From positions 1 to 56,366 of the forward strand of contig CAZPUM010000004.1 in assembly GCA_964589765.1 (NCBI GenBank): a stretch of 56,366 nucleotides of DNA, in the 5' to 3' direction. The DNA comes from an uncultured Methanosarcinales archaeon (GTDB taxonomy: Archaea > Nanobdellota > Nanobdellia > Woesearchaeales > UBA525). The notes beneath the pieces are model-generated. The model was given only the letters and a program-made list of their open reading frames with translations, was not told the origin of the DNA and ran no database searches. A program made the translations under genes and the position numbers. Shown one piece after another: positions 1,035-44,359 of the stretch (its first letter is position 1; each line of letters starts with the position of its first letter).

Positions 1035-1074
1035 ACCCGTAGGTAGAATCGAACTACCTTACGCCTTCACGGGT
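1035..1074 (-). ncRNA. tRNA-like minihelix (7-bp acceptor-like stem + canonical T-arm, no D or anticodon arms)
   Basis: Minus strand reads ACCCGTG-AAGGCGTAA-GGTAG-TTCGATT-CTACC-TACGGGT. The T-loop is TTCGATT, with G before and C after it as in tRNAs. Confidence 0.3.
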
Positions 1075-1108
1075 AACAACAAGAAAGAAAAAAAGGAAGG
1101 AAGCCGTC

Positions 1109-1528
1109 TTACGCACGAACGACACGCCCTCGGGAATTGACCTCGAACAACTTGTTCTTGACGAGTTTCCCTCGGTTGCTCACGCAAAATACTGACGGAG
1201 TTTTGCTCTCGTATTTCTCGCCCACGAACCTGAGCAAGACGAGTTTTCCCTTAGTTCCGACGAACTCATACTCGTAGCCGTAGTTCGCACATACACGATT
1301 TTTCTCGGCAACAAGTTTCTTGACCTTCACCTCGAAACTCGTCGCTTTGCGTGTGCTCTTGAGTGCGCTCTTGCGTTGCTTCTTATCGACGAATTCGACC
1401 TTCAAGTCAGGGCACAAGTATTCCTCGTCGCTACCCTCATCTTTCGGCTCGACGACTTTCTCGTCGATGCCCCTCATAGCCAAGACGACTGCCTCGACCA
1501 TATTTCTCAATTCGTCCTCGTTTGCCAT
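1109..1528 (-). CDS. hypothetical protein (139 aa) of the G+C-rich island
   Basis: ORF track. G/C-ending codon usage unlike the rest of the window. No motif recognised. Confidence 0.7.
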   Translation of the reverse strand: MANEDELRNMVEAVVLAMRGIDEKVVEPKDEGSDEEYLCPDLKVEFVDKKQRKSALKSTRKATSFEVKVKKLVAEKNRVCANYGYEYEFVGTKGKLVLLRFVGEKYESKTPSVFCVSNRGKLVKNKLFEVNSRGRVVRA

Positions 1529-1872
1529 ATAGACACCTCTCGACGATAAGTCTAACGCCTATCGTCAGGTCTTTCCGACGACACTCGTGATATAGTGTCG
1601 AGAACACTGTGCGTCGTGCGTGGGCATAAGTATGCCCTGCTCGTCGCATAAAAAGAAAAAGATGATGCGATATTTAAACTTTTTTAAAATCGGTTCTCGA
1701 CGACAAACCCGATTTCAACCCCTCGAAAATGTCAAGATATTGGTAAGGATAAGAAGCCTCGTTTTTGCCCAAAATGCCCCTTCATATTGGGTATTTACCT
1801 GTTTAGAGGATAAGTAACGTTTATCTTTATGTTTTTCCTTATCCTTTCAGTCATCTTAATGATTATGTATTT

Positions 1873-2397
1873 TCACGTTTTTTTCCTTATGTTGATGCTT
1901 TTGTTCATCAAAATTGAATGTTCACTACGTTTTAACTTGCCAATTTCAAATTCTTCATCTGTTGAAGGACGAACTCCTGGAATAATGCGGTCGAACTTAA
2001 TGTCACCTTTATGTTTCCCCATTACTCTTAAAGTCTTGTGGTCGTGATAACGACTTATATGTTTATACATCGGATCCACGTACTTGGCATAATCAATAAT
2101 CAACTTAGTTCGTGTGAAAGGCATATGGTCGTAATAGAAAATAGCATGATAACCATTGAGAGTTTTGTAAATATGTGCGTCTGAAAGCTTGAAAAACATT
2201 TGAATTTCCCTGACTGACTCTCTTACTTTATCTAAATCGTCAATATCGTAGTCCAACATCAAGATATGAACATCATTTTCCAAATCTACGTAACTGTTCA
2301 TGCCTATGGCATAATTTCTAAGACTCTCTACAACCATTAACTTCTCTCTATATTTCAAGAAATTCTTAAAGGTTTTGAGATTTTTGACTATTCCCAT
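1873..2397 (-). CDS. possible minimal archaeo-eukaryotic primase (AEP / prim-pol)-like protein
   Basis: ORF track 1873..2418. 'ILMLDYDID' (DxD), 'NGYHAIFYY' (GxH) and 'VDP...TLRVMGKHKG' occur in the order and spacing of AEP motifs I-III. Start moved to ATG 2397, 25-34 nt downstream of the TATA. Confidence 0.45.
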   Translation of the reverse strand: MGIVKNLKTFKNFLKYREKLMVVESLRNYAIGMNSYVDLENDVHILMLDYDIDDLDKVRESVREIQMFFKLSDAHIYKTLNGYHAIFYYDHMPFTRTKLIIDYAKYVDPMYKHISRYHDHKTLRVMGKHKGDIKFDRIIPGVRPSTDEEFEIGKLKRSEHSILMNKSINIRKKT

Positions 2398-2420
2398 TTG
2401 GGAGGCACCTTTCCCCACCT

Positions 2421-2430
2421 ATTATAAATT
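2421..2430 (-). promoter_or_regulatory. TATA-box-like element (minus AATTTATAAT)
   Basis: Lies 25-34 nt upstream of ATG 2397. Confidence 0.4.
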
Positions 2431-2536
2431 TGCTGATGTTTTTTACAATACTTTTGACCAAACGTCAAAGGCACATTACAGAATTTTCCTTGATCTGTTT
2501 TAGCTTTACACCGCCCAACATAAGGCTTTAAATCCC

Positions 2537-3037
2537 TCACAAATTATACCTCCTCTTAATGTTTGCAATGTTTCTTTCAGCCTTAGCTTCTTCAGTTCCT
2601 ATTTCGAATGAAGCCCTGGCAATGGCTGTTCGCCAAACATCACGTCCATCGTAAAGTTGTTCTGGCTGTGCAGGATCGGGCATAGCTCTAACAGCTTCAA
2701 GAGGATCCACATAAACAGAAGTTATATTGAACTGTCCAAATCTTGAAGCAAAGTCATCCATTATCCTACCACGAACTTGCTCCATTGCTTGAACTTGCGT
2801 TGTAGACCCGTACCTTACAAACATCTGATAACGTTGCCTAACTTCTAAGGATTTGCCACCTCTACCAATATACTCTCCAGCAACATAGCAATCTATACTC
2901 GTGCTTATAGTATTTTTATCCAAAGGACTAGAAACATCTATAGAATCAAGTCTAGAATTTATCTGCGGTTCAGCAGTTCTCCTTGATGAAGATCCTCTAA
3001 AACCCGTTGTTACTGCTATTTCTTTGATTGTTGGCAT
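2537..3037 (-). CDS. hypothetical protein (166 aa)
   Basis: ORF track. GAGGGGAA SD-like site upstream. No motif recognised. Confidence 0.7.
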   Translation of the reverse strand: MPTIKEIAVTTGFRGSSSRRTAEPQINSRLDSIDVSSPLDKNTISTSIDCYVAGEYIGRGGKSLEVRQRYQMFVRYGSTTQVQAMEQVRGRIMDDFASRFGQFNITSVYVDPLEAVRAMPDPAQPEQLYDGRDVWRTAIARASFEIGTEEAKAERNIANIKRRYNL

Positions 3038-3039
3038 TA

Positions 3040-3281
3040 CATTCCCCTCGCTTGCCTAAGCGACCCGTAAAAGAAGGATGTGGGCAGGTTTGTGGGATCA
3101 ACGACAATCCCGACACAATATGTAAGGGATTACATGAGGGCGTGTCTTTACAGGTGGGCCTACCCACAGTGTTAATTACATTAACCTTTATTTAAAATTG
3201 TTGGTGCGGAGATAGAAACGAGGTGACGCCCCGCACCTAAGACATCAGATAACGTTAACACGGCGACCATCATTTAAATAC
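3040..3281 (-). promoter_or_regulatory. long G+C-rich structured 5' leader or independent small RNA upstream of 2537..3037
   Basis: TATA-like 'GTATTTAAAT' (plus 3272-3281) and a second at 3185-3199. Hairpins include GGTGCGG/CCGCACC, GTGGG-tagg-CCCAC, ATGTAA-tccc-TTACAT and CGCTT-aggc-AAGCG. Confidence 0.3.
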
Positions 3282-3401
3282 TTTATGAAAAGGTAATACT
3301 TAGTATGAAACTATTTACTTTTTAGTCTTTTAGCTTCGACAACTCTTCCACCACGACGCTTCGTGCCACCGCAAAAAGCCAACCTAACTTTCTTACCGGT
3401 T

Positions 3402-4106
3402 TTAGTCGTCTTTACGCGATACTTTGGTTTTCCTTCTCCTCTTTTGCAACTTACTGGCATCCTTCTTCACCTTTTTATTTTTATCAACTTGTGACTTAGC
3501 ATATTTTGCCCCCACATATACCACTGTTGCCCCCACTACTAAAGGAATCCAACTAACTGCTGCAGCTCCGGCTGTTCCTGCAGCATCTGTTGCAATTAAC
3601 GGCAAGTCAGCACCTGTGTATGTCGGAGTATACATATATTGTTTTTTACTTTTTATCTGCGGATGATACTTATTGCCTTGCCAAGGTTTTTTCTTTTCAG
3701 GATCGTGACCCCAAATTTTTAGTGCCGTGTGTTTTCTAGTAGGTTGTCCTTTTTCATCATACAACGGCCCTCTTACCCCTTTCATTCTAGCAACAAAACT
3801 ATTCTGTCTACGCATCCAATCTTCATCATAGTCAGTCCATTCACTAGGAGGCTTTTCACGCATTCTCAAGATTGCATTTGCTGAATTCTGTCCCGACCTG
3901 ATACCTTCAGTCTTAGCTTCTCTCCTAGTTAGACCTGCCTCCTTACCTAATTTTGTACTCTTAAAAGTTTTAAGTTCAGCAGGAGACATGTTAACTCTGT
4001 GCCGCCAAATCTTATAATCAGGATCTGTGGTTTTTATTCCTTTAGAGGCCAAGTAATGTCTATGTGATTCTCCATACCAGCCTCCGTATCTTTTACTTCT
4101 GTTCAT
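3402..4106 (-). CDS. GW-RH-tag family protein with 'KIWGHDP' module and C-terminal coat-like hydrophobic segment
   Basis: N-terminus 'GGWYGESHRHYLASKGIKT'. The middle resembles (from memory) DUF3140-type 'NWGHDP' proteins. C-terminal 'DAAGTAGAAAVSWIPLVVG...' resembles the 56-aa proteins at 43901-44300. Confidence 0.7.
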   Translation of the reverse strand: MNRSKRYGGWYGESHRHYLASKGIKTTDPDYKIWRHRVNMSPAELKTFKSTKLGKEAGLTRREAKTEGIRSGQNSANAILRMREKPPSEWTDYDEDWMRRQNSFVARMKGVRGPLYDEKGQPTRKHTALKIWGHDPEKKKPWQGNKYHPQIKSKKQYMYTPTYTGADLPLIATDAAGTAGAAAVSWIPLVVGATVVYVGAKYAKSQVDKNKKVKKDASKLQKRRRKTKVSRKDD

Positions 4107-4338
4107 GTTCTTTAGGAAAACAATCTTGAAGCTTTGAATAATATTTGGAATCTTCTGCTAAATGATCTTCAGCAATCTTTCTAGCAATCTTAGGATCATC
4201 AGTATGCTCCATTTCAATTTTTATACCCTTTCTAAGTTCACTTTCTTTTTTGAAATAATTGTTTCGCGTTCTCACTCCTTTAGCTGCCAAACTGTGTCTG
4301 AAGCTATCATAGTACCATCCTTGTCCTTGTCTTTTCAT
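4093..4338 (-). CDS. GW-RH-tag family protein, short 'EHTDDP...AEDHLAED.KYY' module
   Basis: N-terminus 'GQGWYYDSFRHSLAAKGVRT'. ATGA overlap with the upstream gene. Confidence 0.75.
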   Translation of the reverse strand: MKRQGQGWYYDSFRHSLAAKGVRTRNNYFKKESELRKGIKIEMEHTDDPKIARKIAEDHLAEDSKYYSKLQDCFPKEHEQK

Positions 4339-5285
4339 TTTTGCACCTCATCCCAGTTTATTCCGAACTTATCTTTCAACTGCTGACCTATTTCTTGAAC
4401 TTCTTCTTGATCAACATTTTTGAAACTATCCTTAAATTCCAACAGAATTTCTCTCTGTTCATCAGGCTCAAGAGACTGGAAAACTTCATCAACAGATTTT
4501 AAAAAATTGTTAGTTCTCTCAGGAGAGAGTATGTTTTTTGAAACAACTTCATACGCCAACTTATTTTGTTCAGATTTATTCCCTGAACCTACGTCACCAA
4601 GAGTCCTAGCAACCCCTTTCAACCAACTAAATTTAATATTTCCAAAAGCAGTTATATCTGATTCTCCAAGAGCTTCTCTTAATCTTTGAGCCTCTTCTTC
4701 TTTTCCATCAATCTCTCTTTGAACTGCTTTCTTACTTCTGAGCTCAATTCTAATTTTACCATCATCTGATTCAAGTTCTTCTCCTTTACCTCGGGATTTT
4801 TCAGGAGCCATAGTTTCTTCAAATCTCAAACTTTCCAACTCAGATTCTATCTTTTCTAACTTCTTCTGACGACGCTCTCTAAGCAACCTGTCTGTTGATT
4901 CCACACCTTTAGACAAGTCTTCATAGATTAAAGAACCCCTTTCTTCTAATTTTTCTGCATCGAGAGTCGCATCAAATGCATTTTGCAAAAACATAGCTTT
5001 TATTTCTCCAGCTTTTAGAGATTTTCCTTTAATTCCTTCTGCACGAGCTACCGAACGCTCCGCAAACTTTCTCCTTTTATCAGCTTCAGTTTCAGCCAAC
5101 CTACCTGATGGAAGCTGTCCAATACTCAGAGCAGCACTCATTTGCAGAACCCTTTTGTTTCTTTCTAACTGATTTTCAGATAAAGGACGCCTCTTAGTAG
5201 CTTTTTTTAGATACTTATGATTAGTCTTTATACCTCTTGCTGCGAGGCTGTGTCTCCAATTATCATTGAACCAACCGCGTTTCAT
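4335..5285 (-). CDS. GW-RH-tag family protein, K/E-rich coiled-coil body
   Basis: N-terminus 'MKRGWFNDNWRHSLAARGIKT'. Confidence 0.8.
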   Translation of the reverse strand: MKRGWFNDNWRHSLAARGIKTNHKYLKKATKRRPLSENQLERNKRVLQMSAALSIGQLPSGRLAETEADKRRKFAERSVARAEGIKGKSLKAGEIKAMFLQNAFDATLDAEKLEERGSLIYEDLSKGVESTDRLLRERRQKKLEKIESELESLRFEETMAPEKSRGKGEELESDDGKIRIELRSKKAVQREIDGKEEEAQRLREALGESDITAFGNIKFSWLKGVARTLGDVGSGNKSEQNKLAYEVVSKNILSPERTNNFLKSVDEVFQSLEPDEQREILLEFKDSFKNVDQEEVQEIGQQLKDKFGINWDEVQK

Positions 5286-5404
5286 TTGCGTTTCTTCTTC
5301 AAATCCTTTTCTGCCCAGGTTAACCCGCTCAAAGTCAATCTAGCTCCGGCAGCAACCATTTTGGCACCAGGACTTAAATTTTTAGGTAGTTTATTTTTTG
5401 CCAT
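5282..5404 (-). CDS. 40-aa basic micro-protein (MAKNKLPKNLSPGAKMVAAGARLTLSGLTWAEKDLKKKRK)
   Basis: Hand translation. Fills the 5285-5407 gap. ATGA overlap with 4335..5285. Confidence 0.4.
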   Translation of the reverse strand: MAKNKLPKNLSPGAKMVAAGARLTLSGLTWAEKDLKKKRK

Positions 5405-5406
5405 GA

Positions 5407-6645
5407 TCAGTCATTTTCCTTTTTTATTTTCTCTGCAAAATCTTTAAATTTTTGAATTCCCCTTAATTGTCTGGGAGTTAACTCTTTACCCGAAGATTTT
5501 ATTTCTTCGATACGTTTTTTGATCATAATCAACTTTGCAGCCATTTCATCAGATTTATTAGCAGGTTTCGGTTCAGGTTCAGGTTCAGGTTCAAGGTCAA
5601 CAATTTCAACATTCGGTGCAGTAGGATTTTCTAATCCTAAAGCTTTCTGAACTTTGCTACTTATCTTATAATCTATAAGTTCTTCATCACTATTCCTCCT
5701 AGGAGTTACAGGAAGGATTCTCGACTTATTTGCTAATTTTTGTGCAAAACTCCTTATATCTTCTCCAGTAGGTAGCCCGCCATCCTTGATTCTTGCTTGA
5801 GAAAACATCGTCAAGATAGGAAGAGTACCATAGATAAACTTCTCCTGACCAGTCCAAGCACTACTCCCTTCACCTCGCTCCCCTGCAACATCGCCTGCCA
5901 AAGCACTAGATCTTGCTTCAGCACCCAACTCCCTACTCCAAATTTCCATTTTCTCTTCAAAAGGCCTTTTATCAAAAACTTTACCCCTATCTGCATTAAT
6001 TATTGAACGAGTTTTGGACTTTAAAGCCAACTCAGCATCAGCAGCAAAATTCAGTTTAGCCTGAGAAATAGTGCGACGACCTTTTCTAGTACCTTTCAAA
6101 ACTTCAAAATCTTTTCTCAAAAATTCTCTTTTTCTAAGTTCTGCAATCTGTTCTGGAGTAAAAGATCTTTTTGCTTTTTCCTCAACTATTTCATCCTTTA
6201 AATCTTCTGCAGCCATCCTTTTTCCTTCTGCAATAGAAGCATCCAAAACCCTGGTTTCACCTTTCATGAAACCTCCTTCTAATTTGAAATCAATAATTTC
6301 TTGAGTTCGGGCCCTCGCATCTTTTAAATCAGCCTTAGTTTCAGCAATTTGCCTATTTATCTCAACCCTCTCCGCATCAGTTAAGTTCGTTTCACCTAAC
6401 TGATTACTCAAAGATTTCAACTTTTGCTCAAGTCTATTTTTCATGAAAAATTCAAACTTGGCCTTTCCTTCTAACTCTGCAAGCCTGTTTAATTGTTTCT
6501 GCCTTTGTGCAAGAGCTTCTTCTTTCTCTTTTATCAGTTCTTCTGGAGATTTCTTTTCCTGTAAATATATTTGATTCTTAGTCCTAATTCCTTTTGCAGC
6601 AAGACTATGCCTAAAACTTTCGTAGAACCACCCTCTAGTTCTCAT
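5407..6645 (-). CDS. GW-RH-tag family protein, long coiled-coil body with EP repeat
   Basis: N-terminus 'TRGWFYESFRHSLAAKGIRT'. Confidence 0.8.
   Translation of the reverse strand: MRTRGWFYESFRHSLAAKGIRTKNQIYLQEKKSPEELIKEKEEALAQRQKQLNRLAELEGKAKFEFFMKNRLEQKLKSLSNQLGETNLTDAERVEINRQIAETKADLKDARARTQEIIDFKLEGGFMKGETRVLDASIAEGKRMAAEDLKDEIVEEKAKRSFTPEQIAELRKREFLRKDFEVLKGTRKGRRTISQAKLNFAADAELALKSKTRSIINADRGKVFDKRPFEEKMEIWSRELGAEARSSALAGDVAGERGEGSSAWTGQEKFIYGTLPILTMFSQARIKDGGLPTGEDIRSFAQKLANKSRILPVTPRRNSDEELIDYKISSKVQKALGLENPTAPNVEIVDLEPEPEPEPKPANKSDEMAAKLIMIKKRIEEIKSSGKELTPRQLRGIQKFKDFAEKIKKEND
5570..5593. repeat. (GGTTCA)4 in-frame hexanucleotide repeat encoding EPEPEPEP
   Basis: Read directly from the sequence. 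Confidence 0.9.
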
Positions 6646-7040
6646 TGCATATTCCTCCCTTCAATCATTCCAGAAACAGACATCTTGCCACTATGTCTAT
6701 CTATGTAATTACCACATTTATCCAAAGTATCTGCTTTGAAATCTTGGTAATTATAAGTAGGACTGCCTTCCATGAACAAAGCCTCATTTCTATCAAATTC
6801 TACCCAAAATCTATCTGCATCTCGCGAAGATATGGTGCCTTCTTTTACAGCATCCATCATCTTCATTTCACACTCACTACGAGCCTCAGCAGCAAGACTG
6901 GCATTCAAAGATGACTGACCTACAGAAGGTTTATCTTTCATAGACTCCCAAAACTTACTTTTCTGATAAGAACGAGTCTTAACACCTTTAGCTGCCAGAC
7001 TATGCCTGAAGCTATCGTAATGCCATCCTTTAGTTTTCAT
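6642..7040 (-). CDS. GW-RH-tag family protein
   Basis: N-terminus 'TKGWHYDSFRHSLAAKGVKT'. ATGA overlaps on both sides. Confidence 0.8.
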   Translation of the reverse strand: MKTKGWHYDSFRHSLAAKGVKTRSYQKSKFWESMKDKPSVGQSSLNASLAAEARSECEMKMMDAVKEGTISSRDADRFWVEFDRNEALFMEGSPTYNYQDFKADTLDKCGNYIDRHSGKMSVSGMIEGRNMQ

Positions 7041-7570
7041 TGACCTCGCTCTTTTTTAGCAACTAACTCTCTCGTTGAATCCTCATACTCGCGGAAAATC
7101 TTTTCCAGTTCTTTCTTATTTTTTTCTGTCGGTTCTTTATCGTATTTGCGAACCGCATCATAGTATTTTTGAACTATTGACTGATTATCTTTGCTTTTAC
7201 TCTTCATGAACTTGCTTTCACCCTTGTTCCAGACAACACCACGATCTTCAAGGAAATCATCTAAGAAGTCTTCTAACTCTTCAATTTCCACATCAAGCGC
7301 ATCAATTTTGTTCTGAAGAGCTTTCTTCTTAGAACCCTTAGCATCTTTGGCTTCAACCAAAAGTTCACGACGCTCTTGTTTAAGCTCACTTTTCTTCTTG
7401 AATGTTTTATCAAAATTCTTTACATCTTCGGAAGAACTCTTATTTGCAAGAGCAGTATATGCACCTTTATAACTAGTTCCAGCCATCATATACTTACTTT
7501 TAGTGTAACTCTTCACACCTCTAGCTGCCAGACTGTGTCTGAAGCTATCGTTATACCATCCTCTACGCAT
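7037..7570 (-). CDS. GW-RH-tag family protein, K/E-rich body
   Basis: ORF track 7037..7594. Start moved to ATG 7570, giving 'MRRGWYNDSFRHSLAARGVKS' like its paralogs. Confidence 0.75.
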   Translation of the reverse strand: MRRGWYNDSFRHSLAARGVKSYTKSKYMMAGTSYKGAYTALANKSSSEDVKNFDKTFKKKSELKQERRELLVEAKDAKGSKKKALQNKIDALDVEIEELEDFLDDFLEDRGVVWNKGESKFMKSKSKDNQSIVQKYYDAVRKYDKEPTEKNKKELEKIFREYEDSTRELVAKKERGQ

Positions 7571-7967
7571 CGAAAACCACCTCATTGTCTTCATCTAAAT
7601 TAGCATAACTTCTAAGTTCTTTATCAACTTGTTCACCTTGATCATCGTCTAGAACATAAATCACTTGATCAAAACCACCTGTATCACTTGCACGCCCTAT
7701 AACACTATGCGGGACGCCTTCGAAATTAGCAATTATAATCGAATCACCCTTATCAATGGCTTTCTTACCCAGTCCTATTGCTTCTTTGTAAGCAGCATCT
7801 CTACCTTCTGGAGTGTACATTAGTTTAGAATACGGATCCATGCTTTTAAGCTCTAACTTCCTCTCAGGAGATACTTTCATATATCTGTTTTTCGTCATGA
7901 TTCCTTTGGCTGCCAAACCGTGTCTGAAGCTATCGTTATGCCATCCGTTGCGCCTCATTTTTTTCAT
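7563..7967 (-). CDS. GW-RH-tag family protein
   Basis: ORF track 7563..7985. The ATG at 7967 forms an ATGA overlap with the upstream stop. 'RRNGWHNDSFRHGLAAKGIMT'. TAG stop. Confidence 0.75.
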   Translation of the reverse strand: MKKMRRNGWHNDSFRHGLAAKGIMTKNRYMKVSPERKLELKSMDPYSKLMYTPEGRDAAYKEAIGLGKKAIDKGDSIIIANFEGVPHSVIGRASDTGGFDQVIYVLDDDQGEQVDKELRSYANLDEDNEVVFDA

Positions 7968-8647
7968 TTGCCCATTATTCTCCAACTGCTTATTCCCGAA
8001 GGAGACTTTGCAATTGCAAATTTCCTACCTTTCTTCTTCTTTGTAGCATAATCTGATGTTGTAAATGTCTTTTTAGCCCTGAGATCATAAAATTTCAAAG
8101 GAGCTTTCGCAGTACTCATCTTCTTCTTTGCCAAATAAATCACCTCTCGATTTTGTGGTTTAAGCATGAAATTCTTCACATCTTTATCTTCTACATCAAA
8201 ACCAGCCGCAAATGCATCTGCTCTGGCTTCTGCCATCTCAATGTCAGCATCAGTCTTTTTTCTTCTATAGAGTGCAACATGATGACCTAACTCGTGATCA
8301 AGAACATCTTTTTTAATTGCTTTACTTGAGAAATGCGTCACCTCGTGCTTAGGTTGCGCAAACACTAAAATTTCCCGCTTACCTCTGAGATATTGAGCCC
8401 ATGCGCCTTCTTGAGTCTTATTCCTTGGCTGAGTAAATCTGATCGCCTTTAGACCTTTTAAGTTATCTCTATCTTGTCTTGCTAAGAAACTCTTAGCATC
8501 TTTTTTAGTAATAGGATAAACCCTGCCTTTTTCATGCCGTTCAGCTATGATAGGAATAGTTTTTCTTACTTTACGTTTGGTATAAGTACGAACCCCTTTT
8601 GCTGCAAGAGAGTGCCTGAAACTATCATTATACCATCCTCGTCTCAT
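7964..8647 (-). CDS. GW-RH-tag family protein with HExxH zinc-metallopeptidase-like body
   Basis: N-terminus 'MRRGWYNDSFRHSLAAKGVRT'. Contains 'VLDHELGHHVAL' (HExxH). Confidence 0.7.
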   Translation of the reverse strand: MRRGWYNDSFRHSLAAKGVRTYTKRKVRKTIPIIAERHEKGRVYPITKKDAKSFLARQDRDNLKGLKAIRFTQPRNKTQEGAWAQYLRGKREILVFAQPKHEVTHFSSKAIKKDVLDHELGHHVALYRRKKTDADIEMAEARADAFAAGFDVEDKDVKNFMLKPQNREVIYLAKKKMSTAKAPLKFYDLRAKKTFTTSDYATKKKKGRKFAIAKSPSGISSWRIMGK

Positions 8648-9066
8648 ATTAAGTTCCTCTTTAATGCTTCTCTCTTTTCTTCATTTATAAATGAAGCGGT
8701 ATTTGTTGTTGAAAGTTGTTTCATCATGCGCTTTTTGAACAATTGGTTATTATCAGCCATCTTAACAAGCATATCTACGCCTATTTTATTGATTTTATCA
8801 AGAGTATCATCTGCATCTATCATAGTGTATGCTTTTATACCTCTAAGCCTTAAATCCTCTTCATCAACATTAGGGTGCATTCGCTTCATATCCTGAAACG
8901 ACTTATCCTGACGCGCCATGGACATTATGTGAGAGAATGGTAACTGCTTCTCATTTTTTCTAGCAAAGAATACAGGATCTACTAGTTTAGACTTATTATA
9001 AACCTTGATACCTTTAGCTGCAAGTGCGTGACCTGCACTGTTACCGTACCAACCGCCTCTCTTCAT
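8644..9066 (-). CDS. GW-RH-tag family protein (degenerate tag)
   Basis: N-terminus 'KRGGWYGNSAGHALAAKGIKV'. GAGGTGA SD. Confidence 0.75.
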   Translation of the reverse strand: MKRGGWYGNSAGHALAAKGIKVYNKSKLVDPVFFARKNEKQLPFSHIMSMARQDKSFQDMKRMHPNVDEEDLRLRGIKAYTMIDADDTLDKINKIGVDMLVKMADNNQLFKKRMMKQLSTTNTASFINEEKREALKRNLI

Positions 9067-9160
9067 CTCTCACCTCAACGTTATGCTCAACATACCAATA
9101 CACTAGAATCACACAAAAAATTCCTAAAATTCCTTGCATAAGAGTTAACTGATAAGTCAT
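9041..9160 (-). CDS. 39-aa single-TM micro-protein
   Basis: Hand translation (MTYQLTLMQGILGIFCVILVYWYVEHN...). ATGA overlap with the stop of 9157..14040. Confidence 0.3.
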   Translation of the reverse strand: MTYQLTLMQGILGIFCVILVYWYVEHNVEVRDEERRLVR

Positions 9161-12100
9161 CCTGAAGTCACCACTTGCCAAGCTGTTGGAGTATAATATT
9201 CCTGGTTGCTATTTGAGATAGGCATACTTAACCAGAGCGTAATCGAATTAGATGCACCATTACCAGGGAACAAACCGTAGTTTAAATCCTTTAAAATTCC
9301 ATCTGCAAGAAGTGTGGCATTTGTTAAATCATTTCCTGCTTTGAAATTACTGGCCAAAAGAGCTTCTGAACTATCAGTTCTACCTTCCAAATCATAAGCA
9401 CGCATGCTAAAATTCAGTTCAACATTTCCTGTGTTCAAAATAGTAACTGCAGGAGTACCTTGTGCATTATTAATTCCCGGACCTGCCGTAGGGAATGTAA
9501 CTGAATCAACTGTTCTTTGCGATGCTAACAGTTCAGCATACTCGCAAACGTTATTCACAGTGGTTGTAGCAGTCTTCCCTGGAGCAACTGTGACGTTTAT
9601 GAATAAGTCGTAGTCGCCTGGAACATAATAGTAACTCATAGGTATTGAACAATTATATGCATGTTCTGTAGAACTAGTAGTTGTAACTGAGCAGGTTGTC
9701 GTACTATAAGTGTTTGCACCTAAAGATACGCTAACCTCATTGATAGTGTCTTGAGTAATCCCTCCACCATAATTAACTGTGAAGTTCACAGGTATTCTAA
9801 CGGCTTCAGGCTGATCGTTTTCATTCGGATAAGTCAATGCTTGGCAAGTATTTTCTACAAATGTAGGAATTATATTTATGATGAAATCAACAGCATTTGT
9901 TCCTGCATCCGCAGTGAAATAATCATCTGAAGCAGTTACATAAACTTTACCTTGAGTAGTTTCAACAAACCAGTTATCTATGGTGTAATTTGTTACCGTC
10001 TGCGAACTAACAACAGTAGTGTTTGTGCCATTCAAATCAACTTTAACTTCATAAGCATATGTGCCAATTCCTTCTGTAGCTGCAGTCCAATTTATGCGCC
10101 AATAAGGATTGTTTGTAATTGTAACCCCGTCTGGCTGGACATTTGTAACTGGTTGCAACTTGCTAACATTGAAAGCATCTGTTGTATTAGAAGCACTAGC
10201 AGACTGATCATTGTAAGTCTCAGTTAATGTCACCGTGTAAATGTTCTCACCTACTGAGAAACTGTTAGTTGTTGCTAAACCATATTGCTGATCTTGCACT
10301 GTGAACTCACTACTGTTTGTAGTAGTGTTACCCAGAGCATTGTCAGACCAAGTTACGTTGATGTTTGTATCTGTTTCATTCCAGAACGGTTGTGAATTAC
10401 CTAGTTCATCTTTGACTGCTAAAGCATACACTCTTGGTAAAGGCTTAGTGGTGCCGTTAGCCTCTGCAATCTCGGAACCGTAAATCTTCACTTCATCAGA
10501 ACCATCAAAATAACCGGAAGCATTGAAAGTATACGTAGCAGTTGTTTCAAGCTCTGCAAATGTCAAATTATTAAGCTGGAATGTTGCATCAGTAAATCCC
10601 CCGCCAATAATATCATCAACTCTATCAGTTATATTACCGAAAGGCAATTCAACAACAGCAAATAAAGTGTTGTTTCTACCTAAATTAGCAGAAACAGATT
10701 GATTAACAGAAATAGCAAACTCATATTCAGTATCAGGATAAAGTGTAAACCTGGGCTCAAATAAGTTCTGCTGTGCTGTATTACCTCTTAAACCCGTAAA
10801 TGTAACTAACAGAAGCCCACTAGTCTCATTATATATTTTAAGAACTTGCGGAAGCCTTGAACCATAGTTATAACCAGTTATACTCCTTAACTGCTGAACA
10901 CTTCGGGGTTTATATGAAAAACCACCATAAACATCAGAAGTCACACTAGATGTAAGAGTGAATGTAAGTGCATTTAAATCATCAACAACTGTAATGTTTT
11001 CTGCAACATCAGTAAATTGGACATCAGTATCAGAATCGCAGAAATAAGTACCGTTACCGTTTTCAACACAGAAATTAGATAGTTGAACATCGTTATATTC
11101 ATCATAAAGATACGCAGTTAATTGTGAGAAAGGACTCAAGAACACAAAATCAACACTGGAATAATTACTTACATTCTTAGAAACCATACGATCTATGGAA
11201 TACTTCTCTGTAGAATTTGCCCAAAATTCCACATCAGGATAATTACCATCATAAGTAACTTCTGCCGATAAAGAACCATTAACAGTACACTCCAACCTAT
11301 CTTCAGTAGTTGAATCTATTATGGACACCACATCGGTCCAAGAAACGCAGAACAAATCTATTTGTCCGCCATTTGAAGCTGAAAAGTTTACCAACGTCAT
11401 TACTGGTAATGCAGATGTTCTTACTACTTTCGTAATATTTCTTGCGAGCCCTAATCTGTATGTAATTGTGCCACCATTATCGCTCCTATCTAGGACTTTA
11501 CCAACATTCTTCGGAAGGCTAGCCTCTCCAGAGTGCGCAACACTCCTTGTACCTTTATAACTGGTTGAACTCCATAATTCAACTTGATCTCCATCAAAAA
11601 TCGTCCAAATATAATCTTCCAATGCACCACTGTACCAAACAGTTCCGTTTGCTTGGTAAATAGTTACTCCCGTAGTAGTAAAATCATACCTAAAGCTATT
11701 TATGGGAGGATTTGCAGGAAAAGGAGTAGAAAAGTTCGTCCAAGCAATCTCTATGTTGTTTCTCTCAGTATTAGTCATGCCCGATAAATTGAAAAATAAA
11801 ACAACTGGATCACTGAGAGGAATTGTATCCGGATAAGGAGGAAGCGCTGTGTGATTACCGGGCACTCCATCGGCACGACTCCAATCAGCATCATAAACCA
11901 TATTTCTCTTCACTATAGAATACGCATTAAAATAAACCTCATCTTGACCCAGGCCAGAAGAGTTCATGGCAAAACCAGTTATATTAACATATTCACCTGA
12001 AGTAAAATTTACATCATAACTTGAATTAGTAGCATTACCGCCAGTATAATTTAGATAAAGAAAATTAGTCTCCGTAGATGCGTAGAATGGCTCCAACCCT

Positions 12101-14040
12101 CCGTATAATTCAAAACCACTAACTCCAGAATCCATTTGATCAACTGAATAAAGCATTATTTGAGACGTTTCTGGAGAACTGCTGTTTTCAACCGAATAAT
12201 TTGAGAAACCTGGAACTTCGTAGATTAACTCTGTTCCTGTGTTTTCCAAAAGACTACATTCAGTACATTCTACTCCGTCCCTATATATAACAGGATTCAC
12301 ATAATCATTAGCACTGTAAAATGTTAAATTAGCCGTTGTATTAACGTCTGAAGGCAGAGAACCACTATCTACGGAAACCCATCGATCTTGACCTGCCAAA
12401 TCATAAGACGTGCCACTATAAGTAATTGCATCTATCACTAGGTAGAAATTATCAAGAGTCATGGTTTCATCCCAACCAGCCACCCAAGTTATTTCACCTG
12501 AATCTGTAGGAGTCAAAAAGGCATCAGTCCCATATAAGTCACCTATTAAACAATAAACGTACACATTCTCCGAAGCTGGAACTTCTACTCCCGCACCAAA
12601 GTCAGCATAATAATCAGTACCTGAGCCAGTTATATTTGAAGTTGTACCCAGATCTCCAGAAGAATCCTCGATAGTACAAGAAGTAGGAGATGTTGCCGTT
12701 ATGTTAAATCCTATAATTGTCTGAGGACTATCGAACTGAACAACCATTCCCCACTCACTACTTACCGTACCGAAATTCGTAGACAAAGACTTTCCATGTG
12801 TTTCAGCAACTTCAAAAGATGAAGCTTCTCCTAGATTAACATCTAGTGCTACTGAAAAATTAGCTCCACTGAAATTCAAATCCGTTCCTAGCCACTTGAT
12901 AAGGAAATTATCAGTAACTGTCAGCTCAGGCGTCTCCAAATGTCTTGAATCAAAGGAAAATATTGAGTCAACGAAATCAGGCAAAACTACAGGTAAAGGA
13001 GGACCTTCAACAGGAACTCTGATCGAGTATATTTCATTACTGCCATCCGTTACCCAAATGTCGCCTGTGGCATCATCAATAGACACATACCTAGCTTTAG
13101 GCACACCAGTTTCTTCAGTTAACGTCATACTTGAAGCGCCCGAAGTTATATCTGCTGTAGTGTATAGCGCATAATTTCCTAAACCGTCAGCTACAGTAAA
13201 CGCACAAATGCTCAAATCATCAAGACACTCAACATCTAAAAACGCATTGTTTGAAGAATAATTTTTCTTTGACACTGTGCCGTCTATAATTGTAATTATC
13301 TCACCTGCAAAACTATTTCCTGATGTGATTGCTACTATGAATGTACTGTTTTTCACATATAAACCCGATATTTCATTTGAAGCATTTGTATCATACTTAA
13401 AAATAAAATCTTTAGTCACTGCATCTATTATGGACACATTACCGAAAAGATCAGCCACACCAAAGTAAGTTTCTTCAGAAGACATTGCGACCGCAACAGG
13501 ACCTACCAAATTAGGAAACTGAAAACTTTGCCAGGCCGCATCCGTTCCATTTCTAAATGTAACTACATCATCTGATTCAAATACGCGAGCAACCATATAT
13601 ATCTCGTCATTCACAGAAGCAACATCAATCTCCTCGAAACTAAACTCGTAAGAGGTCTCATCAGTTATACCATTTGAAGAAGAGAACCCTGAAATATAAG
13701 ATAAACGAAAACCATTTCTAACTACAGCCATAGTTCTATTTTCACTCATGTTCTCCACATAACTCCTAGAAGGAAACGAGAAACCATAAAACGAAGTATT
13801 GACTTCCTCAAACCAAGTACTTCCGAAATCAGTAGAAAAAGCATTAGCATATATATTGTCACCACTCGACCTTACTATAACACCATCACTGGCAAAAATA
13901 TCTCCGTTGTAAGAAGATCCTTCTAAATAACCAGTGTAATTATAGAATTGTAAAGATAAAACAGGCGTGGCAAAAGATATCATGAATAAGATAAACATAG
14001 TTGGTAAAACTATCTGCGCCAACCTTAATTTAGTTACCAT
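9157..14040 (-). CDS. giant secreted, N-x-S/T-dense surface, spike or adhesin-like protein (1627 aa)
   Basis: N-terminal hydrophobic signal or anchor. A perfect Asp-box 'STDFGSTW'. More than 50 N-x-S/T sequons counted by eye. Confidence 0.8.
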   Translation of the reverse strand: MVTKLRLAQIVLPTMFILFMISFATPVLSLQFYNYTGYLEGSSYNGDIFASDGVIVRSSGDNIYANAFSTDFGSTWFEEVNTSFYGFSFPSRSYVENMSENRTMAVVRNGFRLSYISGFSSSNGITDETSYEFSFEEIDVASVNDEIYMVARVFESDDVVTFRNGTDAAWQSFQFPNLVGPVAVAMSSEETYFGVADLFGNVSIIDAVTKDFIFKYDTNASNEISGLYVKNSTFIVAITSGNSFAGEIITIIDGTVSKKNYSSNNAFLDVECLDDLSICAFTVADGLGNYALYTTADITSGASSMTLTEETGVPKARYVSIDDATGDIWVTDGSNEIYSIRVPVEGPPLPVVLPDFVDSIFSFDSRHLETPELTVTDNFLIKWLGTDLNFSGANFSVALDVNLGEASSFEVAETHGKSLSTNFGTVSSEWGMVVQFDSPQTIIGFNITATSPTSCTIEDSSGDLGTTSNITGSGTDYYADFGAGVEVPASENVYVYCLIGDLYGTDAFLTPTDSGEITWVAGWDETMTLDNFYLVIDAITYSGTSYDLAGQDRWVSVDSGSLPSDVNTTANLTFYSANDYVNPVIYRDGVECTECSLLENTGTELIYEVPGFSNYSVENSSSPETSQIMLYSVDQMDSGVSGFELYGGLEPFYASTETNFLYLNYTGGNATNSSYDVNFTSGEYVNITGFAMNSSGLGQDEVYFNAYSIVKRNMVYDADWSRADGVPGNHTALPPYPDTIPLSDPVVLFFNLSGMTNTERNNIEIAWTNFSTPFPANPPINSFRYDFTTTGVTIYQANGTVWYSGALEDYIWTIFDGDQVELWSSTSYKGTRSVAHSGEASLPKNVGKVLDRSDNGGTITYRLGLARNITKVVRTSALPVMTLVNFSASNGGQIDLFCVSWTDVVSIIDSTTEDRLECTVNGSLSAEVTYDGNYPDVEFWANSTEKYSIDRMVSKNVSNYSSVDFVFLSPFSQLTAYLYDEYNDVQLSNFCVENGNGTYFCDSDTDVQFTDVAENITVVDDLNALTFTLTSSVTSDVYGGFSYKPRSVQQLRSITGYNYGSRLPQVLKIYNETSGLLLVTFTGLRGNTAQQNLFEPRFTLYPDTEYEFAISVNQSVSANLGRNNTLFAVVELPFGNITDRVDDIIGGGFTDATFQLNNLTFAELETTATYTFNASGYFDGSDEVKIYGSEIAEANGTTKPLPRVYALAVKDELGNSQPFWNETDTNINVTWSDNALGNTTTNSSEFTVQDQQYGLATTNSFSVGENIYTVTLTETYNDQSASASNTTDAFNVSKLQPVTNVQPDGVTITNNPYWRINWTAATEGIGTYAYEVKVDLNGTNTTVVSSQTVTNYTIDNWFVETTQGKVYVTASDDYFTADAGTNAVDFIINIIPTFVENTCQALTYPNENDQPEAVRIPVNFTVNYGGGITQDTINEVSVSLGANTYSTTTCSVTTTSSTEHAYNCSIPMSYYYVPGDYDLFINVTVAPGKTATTTVNNVCEYAELLASQRTVDSVTFPTAGPGINNAQGTPAVTILNTGNVELNFSMRAYDLEGRTDSSEALLASNFKAGNDLTNATLLADGILKDLNYGLFPGNGASNSITLWLSMPISNSNQEYYTPTAWQVVTSG

Positions 14041-14058
14041 TACTTAACACTCCCCAGG

Positions 14059-14068
14059 ATATTTAAAA
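14059..14068 (-). promoter_or_regulatory. TATA-box-like element (minus TTTTAAATAT)
   Basis: Lies 19-28 nt upstream of ATG 14040. Confidence 0.4.
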
Positions 14069-14087
14069 CCTTTTCTGTTTGTTTTAT

Positions 14088-14177
14088 CTATTTCTTCTTC
14101 CAACTCATGCTGAATGCTTTCATTCCCCAATCAGCAAACCAGATGCCTTTCTTCGTTTTCATCTTCTTACCGTACAC
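14088..14177 (-). CDS. 29-aa Lys/Trp-rich micro-protein (GTG start)
   Basis: Hand translation (YGKKMKTKKGIWFADWGMKAFSMSWKKK). GGAGGTGAAACT SD identical to its neighbour's. Confidence 0.35.
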   Translation of the reverse strand: MYGKKMKTKKGIWFADWGMKAFSMSWKKK

Positions 14178-14190
14178 AGTTTCACCTCCT

Positions 14191-14307
14191 CTACTTCTTC
14201 TTTTTCATCTTAATGGCGCCCATTCCAGCCTTACCCATCTTCTCAGCTGAGTACATACCGGCATTGGCCATTTTATCAAATGCATTTATTTTCATCTTCT
14301 TCTTCAT
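14191..14307 (-). CDS. 38-aa Lys/Met-rich micro-protein
   Basis: Hand translation (MKKKMKINAFDKMANAGMYSAEKMGKAGMGAIKMKKKK). GGAGGTGAAACT SD. Confidence 0.45.
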   Translation of the reverse strand: MKKKMKINAFDKMANAGMYSAEKMGKAGMGAIKMKKKK

Positions 14308-14327
14308 AGTTTCACCTCCCATAGTGA

Positions 14328-14429
14328 TTATACTCTCTTTCCCATAATACGTTCCGCCGTGACTTTTCCAAATTTACCCATGCGGTCAACCATTTTAGTC
14401 ACGCCATTTTTAGTGTACTTAGTTTTCAT
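14328..14429 (-). CDS. 33-aa basic micro-protein
   Basis: Hand translation (MKTKYTKNGVTKMVDRMGKFGKVTAERIMGKRV). GAGGTG SD. Confidence 0.45.
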   Translation of the reverse strand: MKTKYTKNGVTKMVDRMGKFGKVTAERIMGKRV

Positions 14430-14438
14430 TTATGCACC

Positions 14439-15737
14439 TCATCCGCTAAACACTGACATGTGGACCTCATCTTCTTGGTTTGTAAGGATGTCCGTCACAG
14501 TGCTGTTAATTTGAGTTGTTGTAGTTTCAATCCTATTAACAGTTGCATTTATTACTCCTATGTCAGTCAAAACCTGGTCTATATTAACTGCCAAAGTTCC
14601 AGTCACGTAGTCATAAGTACTCGTAGTTGTCTCATTAATGAAAGCCAAATAAGCATTTTGAATACTTATGTTTCCATCATAAACTGTTCTGAAGTTCGCC
14701 AAATCAGTACTTATAGCGTTAACCGTAGTATTTATTTGAACTTGGTTAGCTAAAACTTCTGTTAAGTTAGCCAATATCTGTGCCTGATTTTCCTCTAAGA
14801 CGGTAACATTAATGTCTATCGCATCTATCGCCTCCAGAACTTGACTGAAGTTTGTATTTATGTTTGCAAACTGAGTGTTTAAAGTGTTGTTTAAATCAGC
14901 AAGTTGTAAGTCTACACTATCAAACCTATTGAACACTTCTGTAAAGTTAGATTGTATGTCAGCGAAGTAGTCAAAGACTGTACTGAAATTAGACTGGATA
15001 TCTGCGAAGTTGTTCGTCAAAGCAGTATCAATATTATCCAACTCAGTCAATACTGTACTAAAATTAGATTGTATGTCGCCAAACTCTGCAAGAACAGTAC
15101 TTATATTCGCGTTCAACTGAGTACTCAAATCAGACACTTGAGTTGAAACTCCTGCTATGTCTGCACTAAGAGACTCGTTAATTGCAAAAACATCTGTGCT
15201 CAACTGCGTCAAGTTATTGGCAACATAAGTCAAGTTCTGAGATATACCATCAAGATCTTCTTGAATGTTAGTTACATTATTTAACAAGAAATTAAATGCA
15301 CCAGATAAGTGGAATGAGTTCGTAACACTAGCAGTTTTAGCTCCTGCTGCATACGTACAAACTGCTTGATATTCATAAGTTCCTTCCGGCCCATTAGGAG
15401 TAGTAAAGTTATACCAATAGTCACCTGAGAAAGAACTAGTGGCCATCAACTGATCCTGAACAAAGTACGTCTTATCAGGATACAAGATAGATGCAGTACA
15501 GTTCTGAACAGTTACAGGATTACCTTGAAAATCAACGAGTCTTGCTATGATTTGACCCGTCTCCGCAAATCTATACTCTGTATGAGAGACCATCAACATT
15601 TTAGGACTGTAAGCAACCTCTTTACCAGACGCATAATTTACTAATGTTGTCGCTCCTCCAAAAGCAAAAGACAATGCTAGAAGAAGAACTACAATTGTAG
15701 GAAACTTTAATTTCTTATTTTTAGTATCTGACGCCAT
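14439..15737 (-). CDS. signal-anchored fibre-like glycoprotein: beta-sandwich module + Asn-rich coiled coil
   Basis: ORF track 14439..15779. Start moved to ATG 15737 (GGAGGT SD). Contains 'DIQSNFSTV'-type repeats and a 'YPDKT...GTYEYQAVC' module. Confidence 0.75.
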   Translation of the reverse strand: MASDTKNKKLKFPTIVVLLLALSFAFGGATTLVNYASGKEVAYSPKMLMVSHTEYRFAETGQIIARLVDFQGNPVTVQNCTASILYPDKTYFVQDQLMATSSFSGDYWYNFTTPNGPEGTYEYQAVCTYAAGAKTASVTNSFHLSGAFNFLLNNVTNIQEDLDGISQNLTYVANNLTQLSTDVFAINESLSADIAGVSTQVSDLSTQLNANISTVLAEFGDIQSNFSTVLTELDNIDTALTNNFADIQSNFSTVFDYFADIQSNFTEVFNRFDSVDLQLADLNNTLNTQFANINTNFSQVLEAIDAIDINVTVLEENQAQILANLTEVLANQVQINTTVNAISTDLANFRTVYDGNISIQNAYLAFINETTTSTYDYVTGTLAVNIDQVLTDIGVINATVNRIETTTTQINSTVTDILTNQEDEVHMSVFSG

Positions 15738-15756
15738 ATTTACCTCCAAGCTTTGT

Positions 15757-15794
15757 TTATTTTTAAATGTAGCGCACACTTTGTGACAATATTG
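15757..15794 (-). promoter_or_regulatory. 38-nt conserved promoter/operator element, copy A
   Basis: 36/38 identical to 20841-20878. Minus strand reads CAATATTGTCACAAAGTGTGCGCTACATTTAAAAATAA. Confidence 0.55.
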
Positions 15795-15801
15795 CGCAAA
15801 T

Positions 15802-43823: not shown

Positions 43824-43840
43824 TATATAAACTTACCTAT
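43819..43840 (-). promoter_or_regulatory. class-2 promoter motif copy (plus gccaatatataaacttacctat)
   Basis: The TATA lies 22-29 nt upstream of GTG 43802. Confidence 0.5.
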
Positions 43841-43859
43841 CAACAACAATAAAACATAG

Positions 43860-43866
43860 AAAAAAA
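43860..43866 (-). terminator. T7 run after the coat-like gene pair
   Basis: Minus CCTTTTTTTCT, 35 nt after the stop at 43901. Archaeal terminators are T-runs. Confidence 0.4.
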
Positions 43867-43900
43867 GGAGTTCTTCGTCGTGAACATTGTACTACTGTTC

Positions 43901-44071
43901 TTATCTGAACAAAGCGCCAAGTTTGACAAAGATACCAATTATAAAGCCTAGAACTATAAGCAATACGATAAGGTCTAGCCATTCGACTACTGCAGCACCA
44001 GCAGTGCCCAAACCGTCTTCTACGATCAGTTGCAGGTCGTCCCTGTCATATCCGTTTCCAGTGTATGTCAT
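43901..44071 (-). CDS. 56-aa hydrophobic coat-like (candidate major structural) protein, copy 1
   Basis: Hand translation: MTYTGNGYDRDDLQLIVEDGLGTAGAAVVEWLDLIVLLIVLGFIIGIFVKLGALFR. GGAGGTGA SD. Below the ORF-track cutoff. Confidence 0.65.
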   Translation of the reverse strand: MTYTGNGYDRDDLQLIVEDGLGTAGAAVVEWLDLIVLLIVLGFIIGIFVKLGALFR

Positions 44072-44353: not shown

Positions 44354-44359
44354 GCATGC

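Follow-up and report, generated by a model that had tools for sequence, protein, structure and literature searches.

A short conserved peptide on unrelated proteins of virus-like elements as a candidate docking tag for particle loading

Introduction

T-even phages encode internal proteins, a diverse set of defence proteins that have only a capsid-targeting sequence (CTS) in common (PMC3012670), and polyvalent proteins, with a metallopeptidase as hub, combine 2-15 effector domains on one polypeptide and are delivered with the DNA (Iyer et al. 2017; PMC5512222). In the present work, we analyzed a DNA stretch of 56,366 nucleotides (contig CAZPUM010000004.1 of assembly GCA_964589765.1, deposited as an uncultured Methanosarcinales archaeon and placed by GTDB in the Woesearchaeales), hereafter called the window, in which 12 genes with unrelated bodies begin with the same short peptide. 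This peptide, the tag, is portable and strongly constrained. Within one class of mobile elements, it marks many unrelated proteins that are not exported, and the genes carrying it cluster with surface-protein genes. Our preferred reading, to which we assign a probability of roughly 45%, is that the tag is a portable docking peptide, which likely serves to bring proteins into a particle's interior for joint delivery with the DNA.

MuF-toxin fusions, the MIX motif of type VI secretion system effectors, and RxLR/PEXEL proteins of eukaryotic pathogens all represent expanded families in which a conserved N-terminal trafficking motif precedes variable C-terminal bodies. The layout of the tagged genes is alike, whereas sequences and transport machinery are unrelated, and we recognised neither a secretion system nor immunity genes here. 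In encapsulins, short terminal cargo-loading peptides (GSL-type, usually C-terminal) dock diverse enzymes inside a protein shell; however, the tag is unlike the GSL-type motif, and no gene for an encapsulin or HK97-fold shell was found with Pfam. The underlying logic, in which diverse viral cargo shares one terminal address peptide, is of a known kind. No curated family covers the tag itself, and our searches of the open literature turned up no account of it.

Results and Discussion

Twelve tagged genes in the window

All 12 tagged genes lie on the minus strand, nine of them from 9066 down to 3402 (g1 to g9) and three from 20863 down to 17954 (g10 to g12). The start of each encodes G-W-x3-[SN]-x-[RG]-H-x-L-[AS]-x-[KR]-G-[IV] within a peptide of 18 residues. 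The regular expression GW.{3}[SN].[RG]H.L[AS][ASR][KR]G had 12 matches in the six-frame translation of the window, compared to a mean of 0.0 in 200 shuffles, so that the nine plus three members counted in a first-pass annotation of the bare sequence were all recovered. With start codons that are preceded by a GAGG/GGTG-type ribosome-binding site, the tag sets in 3-9 residues past the methionine. The claim that the bodies are unrelated also held, as an all-against-all BLASTP comparison of the 12 bodies without the tag gave a best E-value of 0.056 and thus no detectable similarity.

The genes are tightly coupled, with 4-nt ATGA overlaps at g1/g2, g4/g5, g5/g6, and g7/g8, and with further neighbours that abut or overlap. 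The translational coupling reported for the run of nine was therefore seen, and the minus strand, which had not been given, can be added. Nine tagged genes are indeed present, but they are not strictly consecutive: an untagged open reading frame (ORF) of 40 aa (5282-5404, minus strand) is interposed between g6 and g7 and coupled to both, as it abuts g6 and overlaps the start of g7 by 4 nt.

Conservation and structure of the tag

The first-pass annotation had proposed a profile search with the 12 N-termini. A 30-position hidden Markov model of the 12 tags was run against 1.84 billion representative proteins and retrieved 2080 of them at E<=1e-3, each standing for a representative cluster at 50% identity; a homolog search with a 45-aa tag profile returned short proteins only. 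Among the top hits, of which 165 sequences were inspected, about 96% had the tag within the first 30 residues. The logo of 165 diverse proteins reads [MY]-K-[RK]-[RK]-G99-W100-[FYH]-[NGY]-[ED]99-S90-x-R99-H100-[SY]-L98-A95-[ASR]-[KR]-G100-[IV]-[KR]-T90 (numbers are percentages), with 99-100% for G, W, R, H, and the second G, 98% for L, and 95% for A, followed by a loose stretch of about eight residues rich in K, R, Y, and N. Residues this close to invariant would fit a specific binding pocket.

The mean pairwise identity of the 12 window tags was 0.74, 0.81, and 0.46 at codon positions 1, 2, and 3, respectively. Identical residues were encoded by the same codon in only 45% of cases, serine by both AGY and TCN, and the DNA flanking the tags was about 35% identical. 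As third codon positions vary freely and the flanking DNA is unrelated, the tag is kept at the protein level, and a DNA-level repeat or regulatory box is ruled out.

Tags of one contig resemble each other more than those of different contigs (identity of 0.775 within versus 0.66 between contigs), and in these ‘dialects’, the preferred residues at W+1, at W+2, and before R-H are contig-specific. The same-codon fraction within contigs was not elevated (about 0.45). The dialects are compatible with a tag that co-evolves with a partner encoded by the element. In one lineage (loci L006 and L010), a second motif, NIDxGRRFDVSNFVA[KR]G, extends the tag, and at least 10 consecutive genes carry both.

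In the AlphaFold2 (AF2) model of g2, built with 24 homologs, the tag forms a helix at residues 9-16 with a predicted local distance difference test (pLDDT) score of 64-76, and residues 31-160 score above 95. In the model of g9, the tag helix spans residues 13-21 with a pLDDT below about 51. Next to it lies a helical domain that scores 79-91 (residues 30-110), and the model also has a long helix at the C-terminus. The tag scores much lower than the neighbouring domain in both models, which, judged by pLDDT alone, would fit a separate peptide rather than a piece of the body fold.

No match to the tag itself was obtained in Pfam-A, in NCBIfam, or in a profile search of all PDB sequences, in line with the earlier statement that it belongs to no named family. 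The sole match was phrog_26770, a 55-position family of unknown function, at E=0.02-0.03. Searches of the open literature with motif strings yielded nothing relevant to the tag, nor did the literature on DUF5661, DUF3140, and DUF6321, three domains found behind it. A likeness of RHSLARKG to the N-terminus of eS30 (HGSLARAGK) was not recovered by the PDB profile search and is treated as coincidence.

Distribution and likely host

Nucleotide-level scans for tagged loci were performed with degenerate DNA patterns. In IMG/VR, two contigs of 74 and 61 kb held at least 20 and at least 10 tagged genes, respectively, and JGI metagenomes contributed at least 120 loci with 363 tagged ORFs in 606 kb. Among the matches listed, all tags were on one strand in 85 of 85 multi-tag JGI loci, and the densest arrays had 17 tagged genes within 10.8 kb and 16 within 9.2 kb, or the tag on 13 of 14 genes in a row. 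A strict pattern found only five stretches in 185,579 species-representative genomes, and the tag is thus almost absent from cellular genomes. Two of the strict-pattern contigs are archaeal, including one from a metagenome-assembled genome (MAG) of a Woesearchaeota (DPANN) archaeon that is syntenic with the window, and two in bacterial MAGs are probably mis-binned. A tblastn search with the tag consensus against 50,697 phage records gave no match. Our best guess is that the host is archaeal, possibly a member of the DPANN.

Tags at other positions exist in relatives, either internally, C-terminally, or in two to three copies per protein. One example is the 17-member array at 1035-9399 of locus L027, in which several ORFs have a C-terminal or mid-protein tag. 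Because a free N-terminus is not required for the tag, an obligatory N-terminal propeptide or secretion signal is disfavoured. A Sec, Tat, or class III (pilin) signal peptide was rejected as well, as no tagged protein has an N-terminal 19-residue window above 1.6 on the Kyte-Doolittle scale; the neighbouring glycoproteins do have one.

The internal proteins of phage T4 (IPI-III, Alt) offer a close comparison. There, too, a short N-terminal peptide is the sole common feature of a diverse, fast-evolving, virus-encoded set, and the hyperplastic internal-protein locus of T-even phages is likewise a gene cluster in a variable locus between conserved genes. The T4 CTS acts as a portable label, as we propose for the tag. 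However, the two have no sequence similarity, and the T4-type HK97 prohead with its scaffolding core and its peptide-removing prohead protease was not detected here with Pfam and PHROGs profiles. The tag family is also far larger, given that the window alone has 12 genes, that relatives reach 17 per 10 kb, and that 2080 clusters exist overall, and its tag can be internal, C-terminal, or repeated. Particle loading is, in our case, a proposal.

Bodies behind the tag

Tagged bodies with a Pfam family are a minority, and their folds are unrelated. They comprise a zincin metallopeptidase (the g2 family), lipocalin, DUF5661, DUF3140/DUF6321, a ParB-like nuclease domain, a Dam-type methylase, family-X DNA polymerase (PolX), type IB topoisomerase (Topo IB), ATP-dependent DNA ligase, and a HAD/NIF phosphatase; the Pfam families on tagged proteins include DNA_pol_B_thumb/palm, MethyltransfD12, and NTP_transf_2, as well as PF02195 in protein P0197. 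A tag that is merely a functionless remnant of a tandem-duplicated paralogous family, or a DNA repeat or regulatory element, could explain why the genes stand in tandem on one strand and why tags are more alike within than between contigs. Nevertheless, the spread over unrelated folds rules out a single paralogous family, the near-invariance of the motif over 2080 clusters speaks against a remnant, and the codon and flank data given above already contradict a repeat, which makes this explanation hardly credible. The first-pass annotation had described the tag as modular, and it can be called so: it is constrained at the protein level, attached to unrelated Pfam folds, and shuffled with them, being neither a DNA repeat nor a leftover of a paralog family.

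Each tagged protein of the window has one body, while two to four modules are combined in relatives. g8 (4093-4338, minus strand, 81 aa; tag nt 4267-4320) consists of the tag and DUF5661 (PF18905, E=5.7e-10), a module that in relatives is tagged and fused to the metallopeptidase. In g9 (3402-4106, minus strand, 234 aa; tag nt 4029-4082), the tag is followed by DUF3140/DUF6321 (E=4.5e-7 and 2.5e-8, respectively), a hydrophobic module YTPTYTGADLPLIATDAAGTAGAAAVSWIPL with its hydrophobic segment at residues 178-200, and a basic tail. The ‘EHTDDP..AEDHLAED..KYY’ and ‘KIWGHDP’ modules noted by eye in the first pass are accordingly DUF5661 and DUF3140/DUF6321, and its HExxH body is the zincin-like peptidase of g2. 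The hydrophobic module of g9 (YNYTPTYVAGDLPLIAADGVGTAGAA..IPL.., then a basic tail) occurs in nine loci and in many architectures, and an 88-aa protein of the Woesearchaeota contig consists of the tag and this anchor module only. Orders that include the metallopeptidase are tag-metallopeptidase, tag-DUF5661-metallopeptidase, tag-lipocalin-DUF5661-metallopeptidase (P0178), tag-metallopeptidase-lipocalin-anchor, and tag-anchor-X-metallopeptidase; further orders are tag-DUF3140-lipocalin and tag-anchor-ParB-ParB (P0197).

The metallopeptidase itself is encoded by g2 (7964-8647, minus strand, 227 aa), where the tag (nt 8585-8638) precedes a zincin-like domain (HELGH, then E140) and a basic C-terminal tail. 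H118, E119, H122, and E140 are invariant across g2 and its 24 homologs (25 sequences). The top Foldseek matches of g2 are all zincins (Wss1, anthrax lethal factor, jannalysin, IrrE), none of them significant (E>=0.1), and the only Pfam match is KMPT-N at E=0.029. A tagged zincin is a conserved array member in 15 loci. No copy turned up in the sampled parts of the WKGESRRHSLARKG lineage, whose arrays are the largest.

The conserved presence of the peptidase raises the possibility that the tag is a propeptide or recognition site removed by this very enzyme, its main role being the control of maturation. Metallopeptidases have been proposed to process polyvalent proteins (PMC5512222), and the internal tags of fused proteins could mark cleavage boundaries. 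However, the region past the tag contains no conserved cleavage motif but just the loose K/R/Y-rich stretch, C-terminal tags do not suit a propeptide, and the largest arrays, as far as they were sampled, showed no such enzyme. We consider this explanation very unlikely as the main role, although it is compatible with loading and does not exclude it.

With respect to polyvalent proteins, the repertoire of the tagged set overlaps in the zincin metallopeptidase, ParB-like, Pol-beta-type nucleotidyltransferase/polymerase, and methylase domains, and the combinatorial shuffling of modules and the proposed role as early effectors delivered with the DNA are shared. The parallel drawn in the first-pass annotation is therefore upheld by these domains, and also by relatives that bundle two to four modules behind one tag. 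In contrast to polyvalent proteins, the modules here are mostly separate genes with a tag of their own, relatives do not exceed two to four modules per protein, the shared tag is not a described polyvalent-protein domain, and the elements look archaeal and virus-like instead of bacterial. The structural and Pfam links between the tagged zincin and the polyvalent clade are weak (Foldseek E>=0.1, KMPT-N E=0.029).

Many of the tagged enzymes of relatives act on DNA. On the 10-kb contig L119, three of these (Topo IB, PolX, and ligase) are tagged, along with the metallopeptidase and the membrane-anchor module. Complete genes for topoisomerase IB, family-X polymerase, and ATP-dependent DNA ligase, each tagged, were found at 1722-6884 of L119 and 6092-9576 of L074, the latter locus having two tagged Topo IB paralogs. 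The virions of poxviruses, African swine fever virus, and mimiviruses pack DNA repair and topology enzymes, which are not known to bear a shared tag. Their enzyme set (topoisomerase IB, PolX, DNA ligase) matches the tagged set of relatives, and we know of no evolutionary link between these packaged enzymes and the tagged elements.

This enzyme set would also suit a tag that binds nucleic acid and tethers enzymes and structural proteins to the genome or nucleoid of the element, with packaging as a passive consequence. The tag has a basic character with a K/R/Y-rich linker behind it, bodies such as PolX, Topo IB, ligase, Dam methylase, and the ParB-like domain act on DNA, the two to three tag copies in some proteins are what avidity would predict, and independence of position suits a binding module. 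On the other hand, a peptide that binds DNA by generic electrostatics would not usually have near-invariant G-W and R-H residues and contig-specific dialects. The tag is also found on bodies of the lipocalin, metallopeptidase, phosphatase, and membrane-anchor kinds, and no known DNA-binding family was matched in Pfam, NCBIfam, or PDB. We regard such a tether as unlikely.

A related explanation would have the tag bind an intracellular hub. This could be a host factor or, in a factory for replication or assembly, a clamp-like or scaffold protein, and the tagged proteins would then act within the infected cell and stay unpackaged. Clients with a PIP box (PCNA-interacting peptide) share PCNA, and a polymerase, a ligase, and a topoisomerase with one short terminal motif, three such enzymes being tagged on L119, recall these clients. 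However, no part of the logo matches the PIP-box consensus Qxx[LIVM]xx[FY][FY], which rules out a PIP box proper. The arrays are located in the glycoprotein block and not among the window's replication genes. Dialects that differ by contig are not what a conserved host factor would predict, and the tag is nearly absent from cellular genomes, so that a hub of this kind appears quite unlikely.

Genomic context

Coding in the window is almost wholly on the minus strand, and neither tRNA genes nor terminal repeats were found in it. Around the tagged genes, a block runs in the order intein-split ATPase, PD-(D/E)XK nuclease, g12 to g10, three glycoproteins, g1 to g9, a gene for a 166-aa protein, and a primase-like gene. 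The same order is found in locus L017, the Woesearchaeota contig, and L012, and homologs of the block genes occur in 4-15 other tag-bearing loci. The setting of the array (glycoprotein, g1, variable array, metallopeptidase, 166-aa gene, primase-like gene) is kept in the window, L017, L009/L011, and L012.

The P-loop ATPase gene (21751-24822, minus strand), interrupted by two inteins (Pfam and extein reconstruction), has homologs in 10 tag-bearing loci. Its inteins cover residues 75-400 and 436-784, the second one splitting the Walker A motif (GSQGVGK|S), and no Pfam, PHROG, or PDB family was matched by the spliced extein of 348 aa. Several tag-bearing metagenome loci contain homologs that also carry inteins. 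The PD-(D/E)XK nuclease (20879-21751, minus strand; Pfam) lies upstream of g12 and has homologs in four tag-bearing loci. Adjoining g12, the ATPase and the nuclease are candidate partners of the tag.

In the upstream cluster, g12 (20183-20797, minus strand; tag nt 20723-20776) encodes 204 aa from the ATG at 20797, within an ORF that extends to 20863, and has an acidic, P-rich body. It is followed by g11 (19422-20186, minus strand, 254 aa; tag nt 20121-20174) and g10 (17954-19429, minus strand, 491 aa; tag nt 19361-19414). No other tagged body is conserved as widely as that of g10, which has homologs in 13 loci that bear the tag.

Between the two tagged clusters, three predicted exported glycoproteins of 1627, 446, and 726 aa are encoded at 9157-17982 (minus strand). 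A hydrophobic segment at the N-terminus is common to all three, their N-x-S/T sequons number 3.5-4.3 per 100 aa, and homologs of them are present, with their order kept, in 6-8 tag-bearing loci.

The array then opens with g1 (8644-9066, minus strand, 140 aa), which has the degenerate tag GWYGNSAGHALAAKGIKV at nt 9001-9054 and a body with homologs in eight tag-bearing loci, each time directly after the giant glycoprotein gene. Downstream of g2, g3 (7563-7967, minus strand; tag nt 7893-7946) encodes about 134 aa from the ATG at 7967 with an acidic body without known family. g4 (7037-7570, minus strand; tag nt 7508-7561) encodes 177 aa from a Shine-Dalgarno-preceded ATG at 7570, in an ORF extending to 7594; its K/E-rich helical body gave sub-threshold coiled-coil-type Pfam matches only. 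The body of g5 (6642-7040, minus strand, 132 aa; tag nt 6975-7028) belongs to no known family, and those of g6 (5407-6645, minus strand, 412 aa; tag nt 6580-6633) and g7 (4335-5285, minus strand, 316 aa; tag nt 5223-5276) are K/E-rich, the former including an EPEPEPEPKP run.

Directly downstream of the array, the 166-aa protein of unknown family (2537-3037, minus strand) is conserved in eight related loci and is a candidate for a structural protein or the tag partner. PDB sequence searches with this protein and with the ATPase extein gave no match. Very basic ORFs of 49 and 50 aa (3311-3460 and 2388-2540, both minus strand) stand on either side of its gene, the second being Cys-rich and zinc-ribbon-like, and both may be DNA-binding. 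At 1873-2418 (minus strand), AEP-primase-like motifs (LMLDYD, NGYHAIF) were seen by eye, with no Pfam match, in the array neighbour that is conserved in relatives. A search for untagged families that co-occur with the tag across lineages, and could thus be its partner, found nothing universal, the loci being fragments.

Within the block, two classes of proteins can be told apart. Members of the first have an N-terminal hydrophobic segment and mostly 2-4.5 N-x-S/T sequons per 100 aa and are predicted exported glycoproteins; the second class is made up of tagged proteins that lack such a segment and have no more than 1.7 sequons per 100 aa. On sequence grounds, these classes read like the outside and the inside of one particle, and the sequence of the first suggests that such a particle would be glycoprotein-studded and possibly enveloped.

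Across 9157-39853 (minus strand), there are eight large ORFs with an N-terminal hydrophobic segment, two of them also with a C-terminal anchor. Six of the eight have 2-4.5 sequons per 100 aa, while the 1694-aa and 333-aa proteins have 0.6 and 1.2, respectively. The sequon-rich ORFs include the giant 1627-aa protein and smaller ones, with heptad-like repeats and weak matches to viral spike/fusion families. Farther upstream, three paralogous Mom-family (DNA modification) proteins with HTH or Myb-like N-termini, each with an inserted LAGLIDADG domain, are encoded in a row at 42072-47393 (minus strand). A 113-aa ORF at 49676-50017 (minus strand) contains an uninterrupted run of about 22 glutamines, and a 570-aa protein at 53845-55557 (minus strand) with Walker A/B motifs (GPSQAGKTS, VLVDEM) and no Pfam match is likely a replicative ATPase.

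Proposed docking and particle loading

In the docking reading, a peptide of about 18-22 residues, [KR]2-G-W-[FYH]-x-[ED]-S-x-R-H-[SY]-L-A-A-[KR]-G-[IV]-[KR]-T, would form a short helix framed by a G-W turn and a Gly cap. The element would put this peptide on a large, fast-changing set of non-exported proteins, all of which would bind one common partner encoded by the element. As core or ‘tegument’ proteins, the tagged proteins would then be loaded inside the transmission particle and would reach the next host along with the DNA; both the binding to a common partner and the incorporation into a particle are steps that we infer. In the window, the cargo would consist of structural K/E-rich proteins, a membrane-anchored member, and the zincin metallopeptidase, and in relatives, it would be a DNA-repair/anti-defence kit of PolX, DNA ligase, topoisomerase IB, Dam methylase, and ParB-like nuclease. 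This reading is supported by the selection at the protein level, the extreme conservation and portability of the tag, its AF2 helix, its distribution, context, and dialects, and by the precedent of T4 and the polyvalent proteins. Overall, the interpretation in the first-pass annotation is thus partly supported, namely with regard to a modular tag, its lack of a named family, and the polyvalent parallel.

Several points weigh against docking and loading. The proposed common partner and the loading of tagged proteins are read from sequence, and targeting to DNA or to a replication factory accounts equally well for the many tagged enzymes that act on DNA. The similarity of tags within contigs could come from local tag duplication alone. 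At sequence-profile sensitivity, neither the ORFs of the window nor 151 untagged ORFs of relatives matched a capsid, portal, scaffold, terminase, or prohead protease in Pfam and PHROGs. The two proteins tested against INPHARED, the ATPase extein and the g2 metallopeptidase, had no relatives there, and single scans of IMG/VR with a metallopeptidase alignment and the ATPase C-extein found none either. The element is virus-like and may be a virus. Given that capsid, portal, and terminase genes were not detected, the word ‘virion’ may here stand for a particle that is enveloped or pleomorphic. In related loci, inteins and PKD, lectin-like, and beta-helix domains occur in the ORFs without a tag; head-tail hallmarks were not found among them.

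Taken further, the data might reflect an undescribed protein-loading system, an idea we put forward tentatively and hold to be possible rather than probable. In it, virus-like elements of archaea, probably associated with DPANN, would use one ticket of about 20 residues to bring dozens of proteins per genome into a non-icosahedral, glycoprotein-studded particle, with the repair kit plus methylases, nucleases, and a peptidase as cargo, and the ticket would co-evolve with an element-specific receptor.

Conclusions

Regardless of its function, the tag is a very conserved motif in at least 2080 protein clusters that has no Pfam or NCBIfam entry and merits the definition of a family. If it is a loading or docking signal, one regular expression would list candidate cargo and effectors of an uncultivated clade of elements, proteins which are otherwise ‘hypothetical’, and the tag would be a ready handle for receptor pull-downs and for the loading of foreign proteins. 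If it is a packaging label, the topoisomerase IB, PolX, and DNA ligase of the relatives would be packaged. As a loading or docking signal, the tag would represent an archaeal-side counterpart of the T4 internal proteins and the bacterial polyvalent proteins.

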